Origin: a phage | Direction: 5' to 3' (one strand) | Sequence record: PZ540767.1 | DNA length: 64,000 nt | In this document: positions 3,697 through 64,000 of the stretch, in pieces | How the letters are laid out: each line of letters begins with the position of its first letter | Position numbering within the stretch: position 1 is the first letter of the stretch | Translations under genes and position numbers: made by a program | Notes under the pieces: model-generated | The model's input: the letters and a program-made list of their open reading frames with translations, nothing else | Told to the model about the DNA's origin: nothing | Databases searched by the model: none

Positions 3697-4578
3697 ATGA
3701 AACTGAAATTATCAGATGTGTTAGAGAACCTGGCAGCGGGTGAGTTATCTCACCTCTCCTTGTTTGAGAATGGGGCGGATATCCCATTTGAAACTTTTAA
3801 TAAACGACTGTTGCCCATTATCAATGCTGGTTTAACTGATATCCATATGCGTTTCTTTGTGAAACAGAAAGAGGTATGGCTCAAGCATTGTTGTGGTGAT
3901 ACTAAACTGGTACTGGATAGAAAGAATGCAGCAAGTGCTCACAGACTTCGTGGCAATGCTTTTATTCAGGATTGTGATGATCCCTTTAAGGATGATGTGG
4001 TAGAGATCCTCTCTATCTATAACCGGGATGGGCAACAATACCCGCTGAACATGGACACAGACCACACCCAGCCGAGAGGCTGTGGGTGTGGGCGTGGACA
4101 TGGATGCAACTGTACACCACCAAACTCATGGGCACGATATGACAGCACATTGGACTACCCGGCAACCATCACCACCAGAACCCCCTATGGCAGCTATGGT
4201 AGTTGTGGGCCTGGCTTGCCTGTGCTGTATACTCCTGCTGTTAATGTGATCAGACTGCCGGAGAATATGCCTTCTGGTTTCATGAAGGTATTCTATAAAG
4301 CTGCACCTGCTCGTATTCCTAAGCTGGAGGATAACGGGGTAACTACCTATGATCGTATCGATCTGGATTTACCCTTTACTTATCTGGATGCACTGGTTTA
4401 CTACATCTCATCCCGTCTGACTGCACCTACCAATGGTGGGCTGCAAGCAGGGACTAATGAGACAACCCAGTACTACAATAAGTATCTGTCTGCTTGTGCA
4501 GTGCTTACTGATCAAGGGGTGGATGTTTCTACTCAGGGATCTGGTTACAGCAGGTTTGCTAAGTCAGACTTCAGATAA
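3697..4578 (+). CDS. hypothetical protein with Cys/Gly/His-rich motif
   Basis: 293 aa; AAGGA RBS; contains HTQPRGCGCGRGHGCNC; followed by terminator. Confidence 0.6.
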   Translation: MKLKLSDVLENLAAGELSHLSLFENGADIPFETFNKRLLPIINAGLTDIHMRFFVKQKEVWLKHCCGDTKLVLDRKNAASAHRLRGNAFIQDCDDPFKDDVVEILSIYNRDGQQYPLNMDTDHTQPRGCGCGRGHGCNCTPPNSWARYDSTLDYPATITTRTPYGSYGSCGPGLPVLYTPAVNVIRLPENMPSGFMKVFYKAAPARIPKLEDNGVTTYDRIDLDLPFTYLDALVYYISSRLTAPTNGGLQAGTNETTQYYNKYLSACAVLTDQGVDVSTQGSGYSRFAKSDFR

Positions 4579-31759: not shown

Positions 31760-32290
31760 TTAGTTACCTTTTGTTTCTAGGCCATGGTTCTCATGGAAGC
31801 CTAATTCAATTAATTTCTCAGCCCGGCAGATAGCTGCTTCATTGGCTGTTTTGAAGGTACGTTGCCATACCTTCTTACGGTTCATCGTGATTTCTGCTAC
31901 ATAGCGATCACGACGTTTGCAGTACCAAATACCTTGGTGTCCAGTAATGGTATTGCTGATTGCACCCCTGTTTCGCATATTCTGAAGCATCGTAGTGTCC
32001 TTCAGATTTACTGCCCTGTTGTCATCACGAATATGGTTATCGTGGTCTACGTGCCCTTTAGGCCACTGCCTGTTGTGCATGTAGTAACAGATGATATGCT
32101 CTCCATAGGTAGTGCCGAAGATTGTTATATGGCGGTAGCCGCTAGCCTTGTGGAGACTCCCAGCGCGACTACCGATAACAATTCTCTTATTACAAGACTT
32201 GCTAATCCAAGTAAGATGTCCAGTAAGAGCATCATATTTTAGTACCTTTTCAAGCATTTCAAGGGTGAGATCTTTTTTGGGAATTTTCAT
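31760..32290 (-). CDS. HNH homing endonuclease with AP2-type DNA-binding domain
   Basis: 176 aa; HVDHDNHIRDDNRAVNL HNH motif followed by AP2-like GIWYCKRRDRYVAEI...ANEAAICRAEKL. Confidence 0.7.
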   Translation of the reverse strand: MKIPKKDLTLEMLEKVLKYDALTGHLTWISKSCNKRIVIGSRAGSLHKASGYRHITIFGTTYGEHIICYYMHNRQWPKGHVDHDNHIRDDNRAVNLKDTTMLQNMRNRGAISNTITGHQGIWYCKRRDRYVAEITMNRKKVWQRTFKTANEAAICRAEKLIELGFHENHGLETKGN

Positions 32291-33018
32291 GCGTAATACT
32301 CATGCAAACGGTCTAAGACCAACTGCATGTCATTATCGATGAAGGTTTCCTTGATATCAAATAAGTCCTCTGGGCCACGTAAACGCTCGTTAATGGTGTT
32401 CTTAGTAACCTGGGTCTGGTAAACATGCTTGTACCCGAGCATCTCCTCGCGCTCGTTAATGTGAAGTAACCCGTTCTGGTATTCTTCCAGATCCGTAAGC
32501 TTCACTTTCTTACAGGCAATAACCAGACTGAAGTATGACTCAATGCCCTGGTTCTTCAGTGCCCCTTTAACAGGTACACAGGTTTCACGAACCATGTCAT
32601 CGTTAACTTCATCCTTCGTGTGAGCTAAGAAGATCACGTTCTTGGTAGACGTGGCTACCAGCACCTGCATCAGGTGTTTGAACTGCTGGGCAAATTGGCC
32701 CCATGCAGCTTGGGTATTCGAGCTAGTAAGTACGAGCTGGCTCTCTACCATGTCCATGTAGTACGTCAGTGAATCAACTACAATGGTGTGAATATTCGGC
32801 TGGGTTTCAGCCCACTGAAACGCTTTAGGGAGGATATCCCAACGTGCAATGGTACGTTCCAGGAAACCTGATTTGAACGGCAGCTTTTTACCTGATTCAC
32901 AGTTAAGGTACAGCACACCTTCCGGGTTCTTCAGGTTCTTCAGTGACCGTGATTTACCACTTGCTGATTTACCTACAAGCAGTACAAGGTTGTCATTAAC
33001 GCTGATTTGATCGGACAT
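32287..33018 (-). CDS. P-loop ATPase, probably RecA-like recombination/replication ATPase
   Basis: Walker A GKSASGKS near N-terminus; ATG at 33018 with AGAGGT RBS (ORF track begins earlier at a non-ATG codon). Confidence 0.55.
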   Translation of the reverse strand: MSDQISVNDNLVLLVGKSASGKSRSLKNLKNPEGVLYLNCESGKKLPFKSGFLERTIARWDILPKAFQWAETQPNIHTIVVDSLTYYMDMVESQLVLTSSNTQAAWGQFAQQFKHLMQVLVATSTKNVIFLAHTKDEVNDDMVRETCVPVKGALKNQGIESYFSLVIACKKVKLTDLEEYQNGLLHINEREEMLGYKHVYQTQVTKNTINERLRGPEDLFDIKETFIDNDMQLVLDRLHEYYA

Positions 33019-33087
33019 AATTACCTCTTTTGAAATGCCCCCGAAGGGGCAAACCCACAAAGGGAACGGAAGTTCCCCAACACACAA

Positions 33088-44950: not shown

Positions 44951-45168
44951 AACTTGTAGAAAACTGGAAGTCAGCATGGAAGTGGTATTCTGTGCATATT
45001 ATGGTAGTGATCGTTGCACTTCCTGAAATCTGGAGTTACTTTCCACAGGAGTTTAAGGATTCATTACCTCCACATGCTCTTGCTGGATTAACAACTTTCC
45101 TGGGTATCTCAGCGATTGTTGCTCGTCTGGTTTCTCAGGAGAAACGTAATGATCAAGGATCTAATTAA
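44947..45168 (+). CDS. small membrane protein, candidate holin
   Basis: 73 aa; start overlaps endolysin stop (ATGA); two hydrophobic segments; inside lysis cassette. Confidence 0.45.
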   Translation: MKLVENWKSAWKWYSVHIMVVIVALPEIWSYFPQEFKDSLPPHALAGLTTFLGISAIVARLVSQEKRNDQGSN

Positions 45169-45658
45169 ACAGTATGCTGTTTTGTTAGGTTCTGTTCTGG
45201 CCCTGGCTTTACTTGCCGGGGCTTGTTACTTAACCTATGTTGTAACAGATAACCACTGGTCTGCTAAGTATTCTGGATTAGAACAGAAGTATAGTGATGC
45301 TTCTGCCAAAGCTACTCAGGAGGCCAGAGTCAAAGAATGGGAGTACCAAAACAATGTTGATGCAATCGCACAGCAAGGGGCTAAAGACCTCGCACAAGCT
45401 CGCTCTGACGCTGATATTGCCAATGCTTCTGTTAGCAGGTTGCAGCAACGGATCAACCGTTTACTTGCCAACACCAGCTCCGAAGATTCCGGCACTACCC
45501 AAAGAGGCAAGACAGCCAGAGAAGCCCTCGATCTGCTTGCCAACGTGCTCGAAAAATCTCTCGAACGAAACAGACAGTTGGCTGACTACGCCGACAAAGC
45601 CAGTAGTGCTGGATTCACCTGTGAAAAAGCCTACGACGCCATCCAATCAGGCAAGTAA
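45149..45658 (+). CDS. i-spanin (Rz-like)
   Basis: AGGAG RBS before ATG 45149; N-terminal TM helix then periplasmic coiled-coil region; an o-spanin-like ORF overlaps in another frame. Confidence 0.6.
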   Translation: MIKDLIKQYAVLLGSVLALALLAGACYLTYVVTDNHWSAKYSGLEQKYSDASAKATQEARVKEWEYQNNVDAIAQQGAKDLAQARSDADIANASVSRLQQRINRLLANTSSEDSGTTQRGKTAREALDLLANVLEKSLERNRQLADYADKASSAGFTCEKAYDAIQSGK

Positions 45659-46406: not shown

Positions 46407-46633
46407 AGAGAGGCAATCCTGTGAGTTGCAGCCCTGATACGACTAATACGCTTAGTGTGTATTGTCTCATTTCTGTCGTAGCCTCGGGCATTTCTACGAA
46501 TGGTTTCACACTCTGCCCTATAGGCAGGAGTCTGAGTTTGTTTTTGTAGGATCTTAGAACATTTAGAGTGAACTCGTTTATTTCGTAAGATCCCACAGAT
46601 TGGACATACGTTAAATGTTGGACTGAAAATCAT
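46403..46633 (-). CDS. small basic Cys-containing protein, possible zinc ribbon
   Basis: 76 aa; CPICG near N-terminus, Arg/Lys-rich; start overlaps methyltransferase stop (ATGA); competing frame 46384..46596 judged less likely. Confidence 0.4.
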   Translation of the reverse strand: MIFSPTFNVCPICGILRNKRVHSKCSKILQKQTQTPAYRAECETIRRNARGYDRNETIHTKRISRIRAATHRIASL

Positions 46634-47436
46634 GGTTTTAGTACAGCAATGATATCTTTGGCTACTTCTCGTGATTCAGCTTTAGCTGAGATGCTACGAG
46701 TTGCAGTTAATGGGTGAATGTCAAAACCAGCTTTGGTATAGAGATCAACTAAACGTGGAGCACTACTATTTGTAATGACCACTCTTACACCTCTGGCTTT
46801 AAGCTCAAGAGCTTTACCTACCAGACGTTTCTGATCTCCCCACTTAAAGCTGGTGCCACTATAGCTTGTGAACCCCTGATGTTTAGGCATAGGCTCATAA
46901 GGTGGATCACAAAATACAACATTACCTTCCTCAGCAGTGTTCATAAATAACATGAAGTCTGTATTTGCTACTGTTGGTTTCAAACCAGAATTGATGAAAT
47001 CTCTGAGTTCCTGTTCAGGGAAGTAAGGTTGTTCTTTCTGGCCCCAAGGAACATTGAATTCCTTTTTCTTGTTGTAACGACACAGGCCATTAAAGCCAGT
47101 ACGATTGAGCACCAGGAAGAACACGGCTTTAGACAGGGAATTGAACTTACCACTGTTAAAGTTAGCCCTGAGCTGATTGTAGCGAGCTTCTGAGTTACAC
47201 CACTCATGCAGTTTCTTTGCCTGGTTCAATACATAATCACCATTATGGATGAGGGCTAAGTAGAGCTGGCATAGATCAGGATTTACATCATTGATAGCCA
47301 CCTTATCGAAACCAGCATTCATAAATACTGATCCTGCACCCACAAAAGGTTCAATGAGACGATTACCAACTAAGAATGGTTGGATTTGAGGAAGCTGGCG
47401 ATACTTGCCACCTGCCCACTTAAGCCAAGGTTTCAT
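46630..47436 (-). CDS. dam: Dam-like N6-adenine DNA methyltransferase
   Basis: 268 aa; N-terminal WAGGKYRQL, FVGAGSVF AdoMet-binding motif and catalytic DPPY motif. Confidence 0.85.
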   Translation of the reverse strand: MKPWLKWAGGKYRQLPQIQPFLVGNRLIEPFVGAGSVFMNAGFDKVAINDVNPDLCQLYLALIHNGDYVLNQAKKLHEWCNSEARYNQLRANFNSGKFNSLSKAVFFLVLNRTGFNGLCRYNKKKEFNVPWGQKEQPYFPEQELRDFINSGLKPTVANTDFMLFMNTAEEGNVVFCDPPYEPMPKHQGFTSYSGTSFKWGDQKRLVGKALELKARGVRVVITNSSAPRLVDLYTKAGFDIHPLTATRSISAKAESREVAKDIIAVLKP

Positions 47437-47545
47437 TTGAGCACCAATGCTAACAGGTTCATAACGAGTTCATTGGCTTGATAGGCCAAGAACCAGAAGG
47501 CACCCAGCAGTATTGCCAGTATGCACCACACTTTTCCGCGAAAGC

Positions 47546-59060: not shown

Positions 59061-60242
59061 CTATACAAGCCCTTCCATTGTAAAGTGAACCACTTTGCCA
59101 AATTTTGGTACAAAGTTGGGGTTATCATAAACGAACCAGATTACAGGACGTTTAGGATCTACCAGATTGTGCTGGCTGAGGTAACCATCAGTCAGGATAA
59201 ACATCCCCAGTGATGCTTTATCACGGGCGAAGTCTTCGATGGTACTGTCGATGCAAGTACCGCCACCACCACTGAATTTAACATTGAGCAGATCACGTAC
59301 TGTACATATACGAGAGATATCCTTGATATCAGTATCAAACTGATACAGCTTTATCTCGTCTGGTTTAAACAGTTTCAGTACCTGATAAACACCACCTAAG
59401 AAGATGGTGAACTCTTTCTTGCCAATGGAACCAGATACGTCAATAGCCCATGAAATACGTCCCAGGGACTTACCACGGCGTTCTGGAGCAGTGATATCGT
59501 GTACCAGCATACGACGACGAAGACGTGACCATGTACGGCCAGGCTTACGTGTGACCTTCTCACAGAAGATCTTCAGATAGTGCTGCCAAGGAATTGGAGG
59601 ATTCAGGAGATCCTCAATACGGCGAGCCATATCCTTAGTACCACGCCCAAACTGTTTACCAGTCTGGTTTGCCTCAGCCATTTCAGCTGCCATGTTAGCA
59701 CCCAGTAAGATGCTATCAATTTGCTGCTTCTGGCTATCCTGTTCTTCTTGGGTCAGGGACTGTTTATTGAAATCAGGCATAGGGTTTTTACCCTTGTGAG
59801 TGCCTGGTTTCTTAGCCTCTTCCTGTTGAAGAATCCGGTATACCTGCATGGTGGTCATACCATCAAAGCGGGAGTCTACCAATACCTTAATAGTTGTAGG
59901 CATTGGCATTCCAGACTTTTTCAATTCCAGGTTGATTACATAGTCACCAGCCTGGTTCCACAGATCTTCATCCAGATCGGCAGGGAAAGTAGTGCAGTGT
60001 TCATGCACAATATGCCCAACTTCATGAGCCACCACAAAAGGGTGTTCAGCAGGTTTGAGCATCTCCATGAATTTCTGGTTGTAATACACGGTTAAAGAAT
60101 CCGTGTAAGCAGAATCACAAGGGTGCCCAGCGGGCACTTCCTTATGTTTTAATCTGAGGATCATTGAAGCCCAGAACACATACTTCTCATCCAAAGCCAG
60201 GGTAGTAAAGGCTTTGTCGAGGATCTTCTCAAGTGGTGACAT
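59061..60242 (-). CDS. metallopeptidase-motif protein with probable VWA-like C-terminal domain
   Basis: 393 aa; HExxH-type motif AHEVGHIVHEH in N-terminal half; adjacent to AAA+ ATPase; AAGGAA RBS. Confidence 0.5.
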   Translation of the reverse strand: MSPLEKILDKAFTTLALDEKYVFWASMILRLKHKEVPAGHPCDSAYTDSLTVYYNQKFMEMLKPAEHPFVVAHEVGHIVHEHCTTFPADLDEDLWNQAGDYVINLELKKSGMPMPTTIKVLVDSRFDGMTTMQVYRILQQEEAKKPGTHKGKNPMPDFNKQSLTQEEQDSQKQQIDSILLGANMAAEMAEANQTGKQFGRGTKDMARRIEDLLNPPIPWQHYLKIFCEKVTRKPGRTWSRLRRRMLVHDITAPERRGKSLGRISWAIDVSGSIGKKEFTIFLGGVYQVLKLFKPDEIKLYQFDTDIKDISRICTVRDLLNVKFSGGGGTCIDSTIEDFARDKASLGMFILTDGYLSQHNLVDPKRPVIWFVYDNPNFVPKFGKVVHFTMEGLV

Positions 60243-62532: not shown

Positions 62533-63369
62533 TTACTTAACAGGGACGAAAGGTACAGAAGCACCTGGCACCATAGTGGTAGGCATTACACCGTTCCACT
62601 TAGCAATGGCATCCAGTTGAATTACGTTCGGGTTAGCAGCGAGTGCTTCACCACGCAATTTGATAGCATCAGCTTCACCTTGGGCACGGATACGTGCAGA
62701 GTCGGATTCACCACGAGCTTTCGCACGTTCTTTCTCCGCTTCAGCTTCAGATTGTTTGATCTCTTGTTCACGCTGCAATGTAACCTGGTTTGCAGTTACT
62801 TTGGCGTTAATGGAAGCAATGACGGTTGGTGGGTATTCAGGCTTGCCCACATAGGACAGACTGATCACCTCAATACCAACTGGGGTCATTTCAGCCTGGA
62901 TCATACTGAGTGCTTGGGTCAAGAGATCAGATTTACCACCATCAATGAACTTGTCAGTAGTCATACGTGAGGCCAGACGGTTCAGGCTGTCAGCAATCTT
63001 CTGTTGCAGATCGCTGTCGGTGATTTCATCCACACCTTTACGATAGGTCTGGAAGACTGTCGCTACTTTAGTCGGGTTGACTTTATAAGCCACACCGATG
63101 TGATAGCCGATGGTTGTACCGTCAGACATTTGGAACGTAAAGATCCCGTCGTAGGTTTTCATCTGCTTGAAGGTCGGGAACGTGTACAGGTCTTCGTTCC
63201 AGCCGATCCAGTAACGGCCTACACCTTTCACTTGCTGTTCAACACCCTTCTCGTCACCGAGACGGTTAACGATAATACCCACGTTACCTGGTTCGACACG
63301 CTCATAGCAGCCTGTCAGCGAGGTCATTGCAACGACTGCCAGAATGCAGCCCATGATAAATTTACGCAT
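62533..63369 (-). CDS. SPFH/band-7 (stomatin/prohibitin-like) domain lipoprotein
   Basis: Signal peptide MRKFIMGCILAVVAMTSLTGC with lipobox LTGC, then SPFH-like core and C-terminal Ala/Glu-rich coiled coil; ORF-track start at 63510 is a non-ATG extension. Confidence 0.55.
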   Translation of the reverse strand: MRKFIMGCILAVVAMTSLTGCYERVEPGNVGIIVNRLGDEKGVEQQVKGVGRYWIGWNEDLYTFPTFKQMKTYDGIFTFQMSDGTTIGYHIGVAYKVNPTKVATVFQTYRKGVDEITDSDLQQKIADSLNRLASRMTTDKFIDGGKSDLLTQALSMIQAEMTPVGIEVISLSYVGKPEYPPTVIASINAKVTANQVTLQREQEIKQSEAEAEKERAKARGESDSARIRAQGEADAIKLRGEALAANPNVIQLDAIAKWNGVMPTTMVPGASVPFVPVK

Positions 63370-63565
63370 GTTTGATCTTCTTTTTGATTTGACGATAAAC
63401 GAAAGTGACCACCAGAGCAGGCCACACCAGAGCACCAGCAATGCCGATGAACACGAGGATGGTATCTTTAGCTGATACCAATGAAGGCAATATGCCTCCA
63501 TACAGGACACCTGACAGGAGTAAGATCACTACTCCATACAGGTAGAGTTTCAGATATTTATTCAT
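63362..63565 (-). CDS. small two-TM membrane protein, possible partner of SPFH protein
   Basis: 67 aa; two hydrophobic segments and basic C-terminus; 8-nt overlap with SPFH gene start. Confidence 0.45.
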   Translation of the reverse strand: MNKYLKLYLYGVVILLLSGVLYGGILPSLVSAKDTILVFIGIAGALVWPALVVTFVYRQIKKKIKHA

Positions 63566-63884
63566 CTGTTTTGCGATTCCTTAAACCAGGGATTGTGTAG
63601 GCTTTGGAGATATACTCCCCAATATAGAAATACTCATGAATTTCACTTTCAATCATTCGTACTTCAGAGCCTGCATCAGTCAGTACGGTGTAACAGGGTT
63701 CTGGCTTAAAGTCGGCAATGCTCATTGTGGATCCGATTTTGGTAATGAAAGCATTACCTAACCGACGTCCATCTTTTGTGCATAGCTGACGATGTAATTC
63801 CAGAGTCCCGGACGGATCGTAACGTTCAGCCCAGTCAGGCAGGACTTCACGTTTAAACTGTTCGTCATACTCTTCGTCTGTCAT
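63558..63884 (-). CDS. hypothetical protein (108 aa)
   Basis: Strong AAGGAGG RBS; start overlaps stop of a partial upstream ORF (ATGA). Confidence 0.45.
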   Translation of the reverse strand: MTDEEYDEQFKREVLPDWAERYDPSGTLELHRQLCTKDGRRLGNAFITKIGSTMSIADFKPEPCYTVLTDAGSEVRMIESEIHEYFYIGEYISKAYTIPGLRNRKTDE

Positions 63885-64000
63885 GAAGCCTCCTTTAAAG
63901 CTTTGTCACGACGCTTACAGTTTTCTTTCTGGCTTACCATTTCCAGATGTGCAGGGTTACAGCACAAGCGATTACGACACTTATGGTCTATCTGCTTCTT
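63881..64000 (-). CDS. partial ORF (C-terminus only), Cys/His-rich nuclease-like motif
   Basis: Hand-translated ...KKQIDHKCRNRLCCNPAHLEMVSQKENCKRRDKALKEAS; truncated by window edge. Confidence 0.3.
   Translation of the reverse strand, partial: KKQIDHKCRNRLCCNPAHLEMVSQKENCKRRDKALKEAS

Follow-up and report, generated by a model that had tools for sequence, protein, structure and literature searches.

A probable N4 gp22-like HNH_3/His-Me finger nuclease gene, apparently long fixed, at the edge of a 64-kb window of phage DNA

Analysis of the last nucleotides of the window, by which we mean the whole stretch of 64,000 nucleotides from phage sequence record PZ540767.1, revealed the 3' end of a minus-strand gene (63881-64000) that is likely to encode the orthologue of N4 gp22, a free-standing HNH_3/His-Me finger nuclease of ~121 amino acids (aa), and to have been fixed for a long time rather than to be actively homing. 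A first-pass annotation of the same DNA had noticed an HNH-like Cys/His motif at these positions, and the motif is indeed present there, on the minus strand, in a 39-aa fragment that by itself scores 35.7 bits (E = 6.8e-9) against the Pfam family HNH_3 (PF13392; gathering cut-off 24.8 bits). What had been spotted by eye at the window edge is thus confirmed as a genuine annotated gene, with its strand and its truncated end now corrected; since relatives have it annotated and its orthologue group has a name, the gene as such is already known.

The minus-strand translation of 63881-64000 reads KKQIDHKCRNRLCCNPAHLEMVSQKENCKRRDKALKEAS, that is, 39 codons followed by a TGA stop, and both remaining frames of this strand carry stops. 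The TGA at 63881-63883 places the real C-terminus of the HNH protein inside the window, so that the "truncated C-terminus" of the first-pass annotation is a genuine one and it is the N-terminus that the window edge removes. Judging from relatives, the visible part would be the C-terminal third, and ~82 N-terminal codons would lie past base 64000; the placing of the enzyme "just outside" the window therefore holds for the N-terminal two thirds but not for the catalytic C-terminal part. The core motif, HKCRNRLCCNPAHLEMVSQKEN, corresponds to H-x-C-x4-C-x-NP-x-HL-x7-N, and the pattern H.C.{4}C.NP.HL.{7}N is found once only when the 64-kb window is translated in all six frames, which together with the HNH_3 score of the fragment excludes a chance match. 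Annotated 121-aa endonucleases from Tribble_ER49 and metagenomic contigs end in the same 39 residues, with 100% identity. The features of the fragment are as follows, the motif codons having been read directly and the residue roles being taken from I-PpoI.

63881..64000, minus strand: 3' end of the HNH_3/His-Me finger nuclease gene, N4 gp22-like, from translation, Pfam and identity to relatives
63920..63985, minus strand: core motif (phage protein residues 88-109) with the putative general-base His, three of the four putative Zn ligands and the Asn
63983-63988, minus strand: Asp-His of the HNH motif
63983-63985, minus strand: putative general-base His
63977-63979, minus strand: first Cys of the motif, putative Zn ligand
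63962-63964, minus strand: second Cys of the motif, putative Zn ligand
63947-63949, minus strand: second His of the motif, putative Zn ligand
63920-63922, minus strand: Asn of the motif, putatively Mg-binding

The last 3 kb of the window is 90-95% identical to N4-like Klebsiella phages of the Schitoviridae (Efbeekayvirus: Tribble_ER49, FBKp27, P184, HS106 and others), with a best coverage of 78% by any GenBank phage record, and by this comparison the window is that of an N4-like Klebsiella phage, Efbeekayvirus-like within the Schitoviridae. A 366-nucleotide "endonuclease" gene in the Efbeekayvirus records stops exactly at the end of the fragment. The locus was read in 14 relatives, comprising six GenBank records (Tribble, FBKp27, GADU21, HS106 and K17alpha62 of Efbeekayvirus, and Kc283 of Cbunavirus) and eight metagenomic Logan/ENA contigs (L003, L012 and L014-L019); all 14 hold an intact HNH gene of 119-122 aa at the same place, and in ten of them the C-terminal 39 residues are identical to those of the window. 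Around the HNH gene the closest relatives show 94-98% DNA identity to the window, and from the relatives we infer with high confidence a whole protein of ~121 aa, MLDKILEELPNRREE...PSPCFIWTGPDSGTGRGGGYGRMSLNSQTVATH... followed by the window fragment.

Family membership, conserved residues and predicted fold agree for this protein. A full-length homologue scores 59.8 bits against HNH_3, and its best PHROG is phrog_1872 ("endonuclease", E = 3.9e-43). Alignment of 50 homologues revealed that C40, W43, H69, D87, H88, C90, C95, P98, H100 and L101 are invariant and that N109 is kept in at least 90% of the sequences; the N-terminal ~10 residues and the tail past the catalytic Asn vary among gp22-like lineages. 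Loss of the catalytic His and Asn, which the first-pass annotation had named as the outcome that would speak against a nuclease, was not observed: both residues lie inside the window and are invariant or nearly so in the 50 homologues. Fold comparison, conducted with a confident structure model of a near-identical full-length homologue, returned I-PpoI (score 7.2) and I-HmuI (6.8) as the two best structural matches, followed by the NFI DNA-binding domain (6.2) and the SMAD MH1 domain (5.6), both of which are degenerate His-Me fingers. The model displays the His-Me finger (beta-beta-alpha-metal) arrangement, which is defined by a beta hairpin whose first strand ends in a His and by a subsequent helix that provides an Asn or His as metal ligand. 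The initial reading of a zinc-binding His-Me finger nuclease loop thus has the backing of the sequence profile, the motif and the fold, and catalysis by the protein would follow by analogy with its structural relatives.

I-PpoI, a His-Cys box homing endonuclease from Physarum, uses H98 as the general base and N119 to bind Mg2+, and its C41, C100, C105 and H110 hold the first structural zinc. Using an I-PpoI sequence checked against PDB 1A73, we found that the motif spacing of its residues 98-119 is the same as that of phage residues 88-109, the His/Cys/Cys/His/Asn of the phage protein falling at the spacing of H98/C100/C105/H110/N119, and that an upstream Cys (41 in I-PpoI, 40 in the phage protein) and an Arg (61 and 58, respectively) are comparably placed. 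The first zinc site of I-PpoI thus has a full counterpart in phage C40, C90, C95 and H100, all four of them invariant in the 50 homologues (C40 lies outside the window and is known from relatives). In contrast, the second zinc site of I-PpoI (C125/C132/H134/C138) has none, there being one Cys after the Asn in a phage protein that stops 12 residues past it; the C-terminal dimer-swapping tail of I-PpoI is likewise absent, and the phage gene, unlike that of I-PpoI, is not intron-encoded. No sequence homology to I-PpoI was detectable with phmmer or hmmsearch. The Pfam family zf-His_Me_endon (PF05551) remained below its cut-off of 27 bits for both the fragment (22.2) and the full-length homologue (17.4), and a precomputed PF05551 match is recorded on a minority of homologues. 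I-HmuI is intron-encoded, carries extra DNA-binding modules for a long target site, and is without the Cys3His zinc site. This enzyme from Bacillus phage SPO1 (PDB 1U3E), a nicking homing endonuclease of the HNH_3 family, differs from the gp22-like protein, in which Pfam finds no extra DNA-binding modules of the I-HmuI type. Pfam assigned HNH_3 alone to the 121-aa homologue, with no NUMOD, AP2 or other DNA-recognition module, although the N-terminal helix could still recognise DNA.

By analogy with I-PpoI and I-HmuI, Cys40, Cys90, Cys95 and His100 would hold one structural Zn2+, His88 would activate a water molecule, and Asn109 would hold the catalytic Mg2+ at the scissile phosphate, and the protein would in this way nick or cut double-stranded DNA. 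Such a nuclease would act in competition or in the DNA metabolism of the phage. Packaging in the manner of HK97 gp74 was considered as a role and rejected, no terminase being found among the neighbours within ~6 kb (small open reading frames (ORFs), RNA polymerase, ATPase, vWA protein and helicase).

The HNH protein is 56% identical over 108 aa, ungapped (E = 2e-51), to the gp22 frame of Enquatrovirus Jura, and its gene belongs to a block flanked by the phage RNA polymerase genes on one side and, on the other, by the genes for a gp24-like ATPase and a gp25-like vWA protein. The gene order in the window and in contig L003 (RNA_pol ... HNH ... ATPase, DUF2201) can be set beside that of Jura (RNAP2, gp17-21, gp22, gp23, gp24, gp25), and both sequence and position identify the HNH gene as the orthologue of N4 gp22, which has the same motif and occupies the same slot between RNAP2 and the gp24 ATPase/gp25 genes, with no difference of substance. 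N4 gp22 has been termed a putative homing/HNH endonuclease since at least 2009 (PMC2784036). Matching records label their proteins "gp22" or "N4 gp22-like", and close relatives annotate "endonuclease". In Jura itself (L005) gp22 is flagged as a pseudogene at 3985-4342, coordinates that are out of frame, and a stop-free translation of 4001-4324 gives the 108 aa that align with the gp22-like protein; an error of annotation or sequencing may have produced the flag.

Within the genus the gene is fixed and under purifying selection. With tblastn, it was recovered at an identity of at least 87% in 13 of 13 GenBank records of the genus, the same number as carry a gp24 ATPase that is 95-99% identical, and the ratio of nonsynonymous to synonymous substitution rates (dN/dS) among close relatives is 0.05-0.25. 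At larger distances its conservation equals or exceeds that of the capsid and ATPase genes: in comparisons with distant N4-like phages the HNH protein shows 54-73% identity, against 30-42% for the gp24 ATPase and mostly 45-56% for the capsid, which reaches 72% in the nearest genus only. The HNH and capsid proteins are 72% and 48% identical, respectively, in Pseudomonas phage CL, and 68% and 72% in Pectobacterium CB1. The N4 gp22 family is thus among the best-conserved small proteins of N4-like phages, and it borders a recombination-prone island.

The boundary with this island is formed by two features.

63889..63895, minus strand: Shine-Dalgarno sequence AAGGAGG for the next gene, within the K-E-A codons at the end of the HNH gene, 4 nucleotides upstream of the ATG
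63558..63884, minus strand: 108-aa gene, phrog_9905, function unassigned, the first gene of the variable island

In the final codons of the HNH gene, AAG GAG GCT TCA TGA (63881-63895), the next gene has its Shine-Dalgarno sequence as well as its ATG (63884-63882), the latter overlapping the HNH stop as ATGA, and translation of the 108-aa gene is probably coupled to that of the HNH gene. Because these 3' codons double as the Shine-Dalgarno sequence and start of the next gene, the tail KEAS-stop is retained wherever a gene of the 108-aa type follows, including in Cbunavirus Kc283, and differs before other genes.

Comparison with the relatives L001, L002, L006, L007 and L012-L019 indicates that the minus-strand segment 61555-63884, from the HNH gene to the genes for a 79-aa protein and the gp24-like ATPase, is a hypervariable island. 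In the window it contains the 108-aa gene, a 67-aa membrane protein, a 278-aa Band_7 lipoprotein, a 61-aa ORF and a 227-aa ORF, a combination found as such in none of the compared relatives, which hold other combinations. The 108-aa gene is swapped for other genes in HS106 and GADU21, and the GADU21 island has an additional HNH gene of 208 aa. The tail of the HNH protein past Asn109 switches in concert with the downstream gene, which places recombination junctions within the conserved 3' part of the HNH gene. Simple mosaicism at conserved sequence could account for this pattern and so, more speculatively, could repair of breaks near the HNH gene.

Among the island genes, the 278-aa Band_7/SPFH lipoprotein (62533-63369, minus strand) is 64% identical, at full length and ungapped, to gp20 of an N4-type Enquatrovirus, which exceeds the identity of the capsid (about 50%) and of the gp24 ATPase (34%). 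It is preceded by the 67-aa membrane protein (63362-63565, minus strand), which is near the size of gp19 of that Enquatrovirus (68 aa). This gp19/gp20-like pair lies downstream of the HNH gene here but upstream of gp22 in N4, is present in some members of the genus only, and looks like a mobile two-gene cassette.

The first-pass annotation had proposed either a second homing endonuclease or a DNA-processing enzyme. An active, selfish, free-standing homing endonuclease would cut the corresponding locus where the gene is lacking or present as another allele and spread by recombinational repair, which matches the annotation of N4 gp22. The HNH_3 family is rich in homing endonucleases, the best folds are those of I-PpoI and I-HmuI, and the hypervariable island directly downstream, along with which the C-terminal tail of the gene switches, is the pattern expected from co-conversion around a cut site. 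The distribution across the family points the same way and weighs against a purely resident gene: ~255-259 records (at a coverage of at least 80%) carry it, against 477 with an N4-type capsid gene, that is, about half of the N4-like records; it is rare in Vibrio and most Escherichia N4-like phages; its position varies between subfamilies, lying beside rIIA in Litunavirus and beside rIIB in roseophages; and a 68%-identical copy in an unrelated 37.6-kb Vibrio phage indicates that the lineage was mobile in the past in the style of a selfish element. The nuclease assignment itself has points to its disadvantage as well. No PDB protein was retrieved by sequence search with either the single protein or the 50-sequence profile, even at E = 10, so that fold and motif spacing are what connects it to I-PpoI and I-HmuI. 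In addition, the residue roles are transferred by analogy from published I-PpoI structures, the literature held only annotation-level mentions of N4 gp22 and no biochemistry for its clade was found there, and the copy of this genome is known from its C-terminal third, the N-terminal two thirds coming from relatives that are 94-98% identical at the DNA level.

Nevertheless, active homing looks unlikely. Close relatives show no presence/absence polymorphism, all 13 GenBank records and all 8 metagenomic contigs being positive, and the patchiness is confined to comparisons between subfamilies; purifying selection is strong, and conservation matches or exceeds that of core genes; and Pfam finds in the protein no NUMOD, AP2 or similar module, to which free-standing HNH homing enzymes owe their long targets. 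Identity to other phages also declines with divergence of the ATPase (Spearman 0.90, n = 8), which would suggest mostly vertical descent, yet HNH and capsid identities rank Pseudomonas phage CL and Pectobacterium CB1 in opposite order, a short constrained protein gives weak phylogenetic signal and we did not rely on these ranks. The missing separate DNA-recognition domain, the presence in every close relative and the capsid-level conservation make a long-fixed nuclease likelier than an actively homing one. Of the proposal of a second homing endonuclease, the second HNH gene thus stands (the other being the 179-aa ORF described below), whereas homing is the less likely reading for a gene fixed in close relatives; the alternative proposal of a DNA-processing enzyme fits a fixed, conserved N4 gp22 orthologue at least as well. 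We also consider it very unlikely that the protein is a catalytically dead His-Me finger with a DNA-binding or regulatory function only, comparable to the SMAD MH1 and NFI domains among its structural matches. Degenerate His-Me fingers typically lose the catalytic residues, but here the putative general-base His, the Asp preceding it and the putative metal-binding Asn are invariant or nearly so in the 50 homologues, and the two best structural matches are active nucleases. That the gene is a pseudogene in this genome, or a chance ORF at the window edge, could be entertained given a visible part of 39 codons, but is extremely improbable considering the Pfam E-value of 6.8e-9, the intact gene in 14 of 14 relatives, and the intact stop codon, Shine-Dalgarno sequence and ATGA overlap with the next gene; moreover, over the first 30 visible codons the differences to the three closest relatives (3:0, 2:1 and 2:0) are nearly all synonymous.

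The preferred reading is therefore that of an old free-standing HNH gene, long fixed in several N4-like lineages and probably having a role useful to the phage. Two specific roles can be envisaged, although we regard this extension as rather improbable: rather than a passive passenger or a classical homing enzyme, the nuclease may be what maintains the hypervariability of the neighbouring locus, cutting the genomes of N4-like competitors close to its own gene when two phages infect one cell, so that repair swaps the downstream island with breakpoints in the conserved 3' end, or else N4-type DNA processing may depend on it as an essential component. Each of these, if true, would explain the capsid-level conservation of a "selfish-looking" 121-aa gene across phages of alpha-, beta- and gamma-proteobacteria.

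A further HNH_3 gene is located elsewhere in the window.

31763-32299, minus strand: 179-aa ORF with HNH_3 (31.4 bits) and a sub-threshold AP2 match, from Pfam

This ORF, presumably the "first" homing endonuclease of the first-pass annotation, lies directly downstream of a Sak4-like AAA_24 gene (32290-33087), with a 10-nucleotide overlap. Like the gp22-like gene it passes Pfam HNH_3 and is conserved within the genus, but the two proteins have no significant pairwise similarity, and the 179-aa protein differs in its AP2-like DNA-binding domain and in being without the Cys/His zinc loop in the aligned motif. It is found in 12 of the 13 genus records, and its family has matches in more than 2,000 records from diverse phages, frequently with multiple copies. 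Its use as a control for a sporadic mobile gene was uninformative, since 12 of 13 genus records have it.

Related GenBank records and phrog_1314 give the label "HNH endonuclease" to a 393-aa gene at 59061-60242 (minus strand). The equivalent genes of related contigs have recorded Pfam matches to DUF2201_N and DUF2201 (N4 gp25-like vWA protein), and the 393-aa protein of the window contains a metalloprotease-like HEVGH motif and none of the HNH type; a misannotation copied from record to record is the probable origin of the label. Lastly, the window encodes a D12-class N6-adenine DNA methyltransferase (46633-47469, minus strand; Pfam E = 3.8e-47), and near its gene lie those for a phage lysozyme (44423-44947) and a DUF2514 protein (45092-45655).
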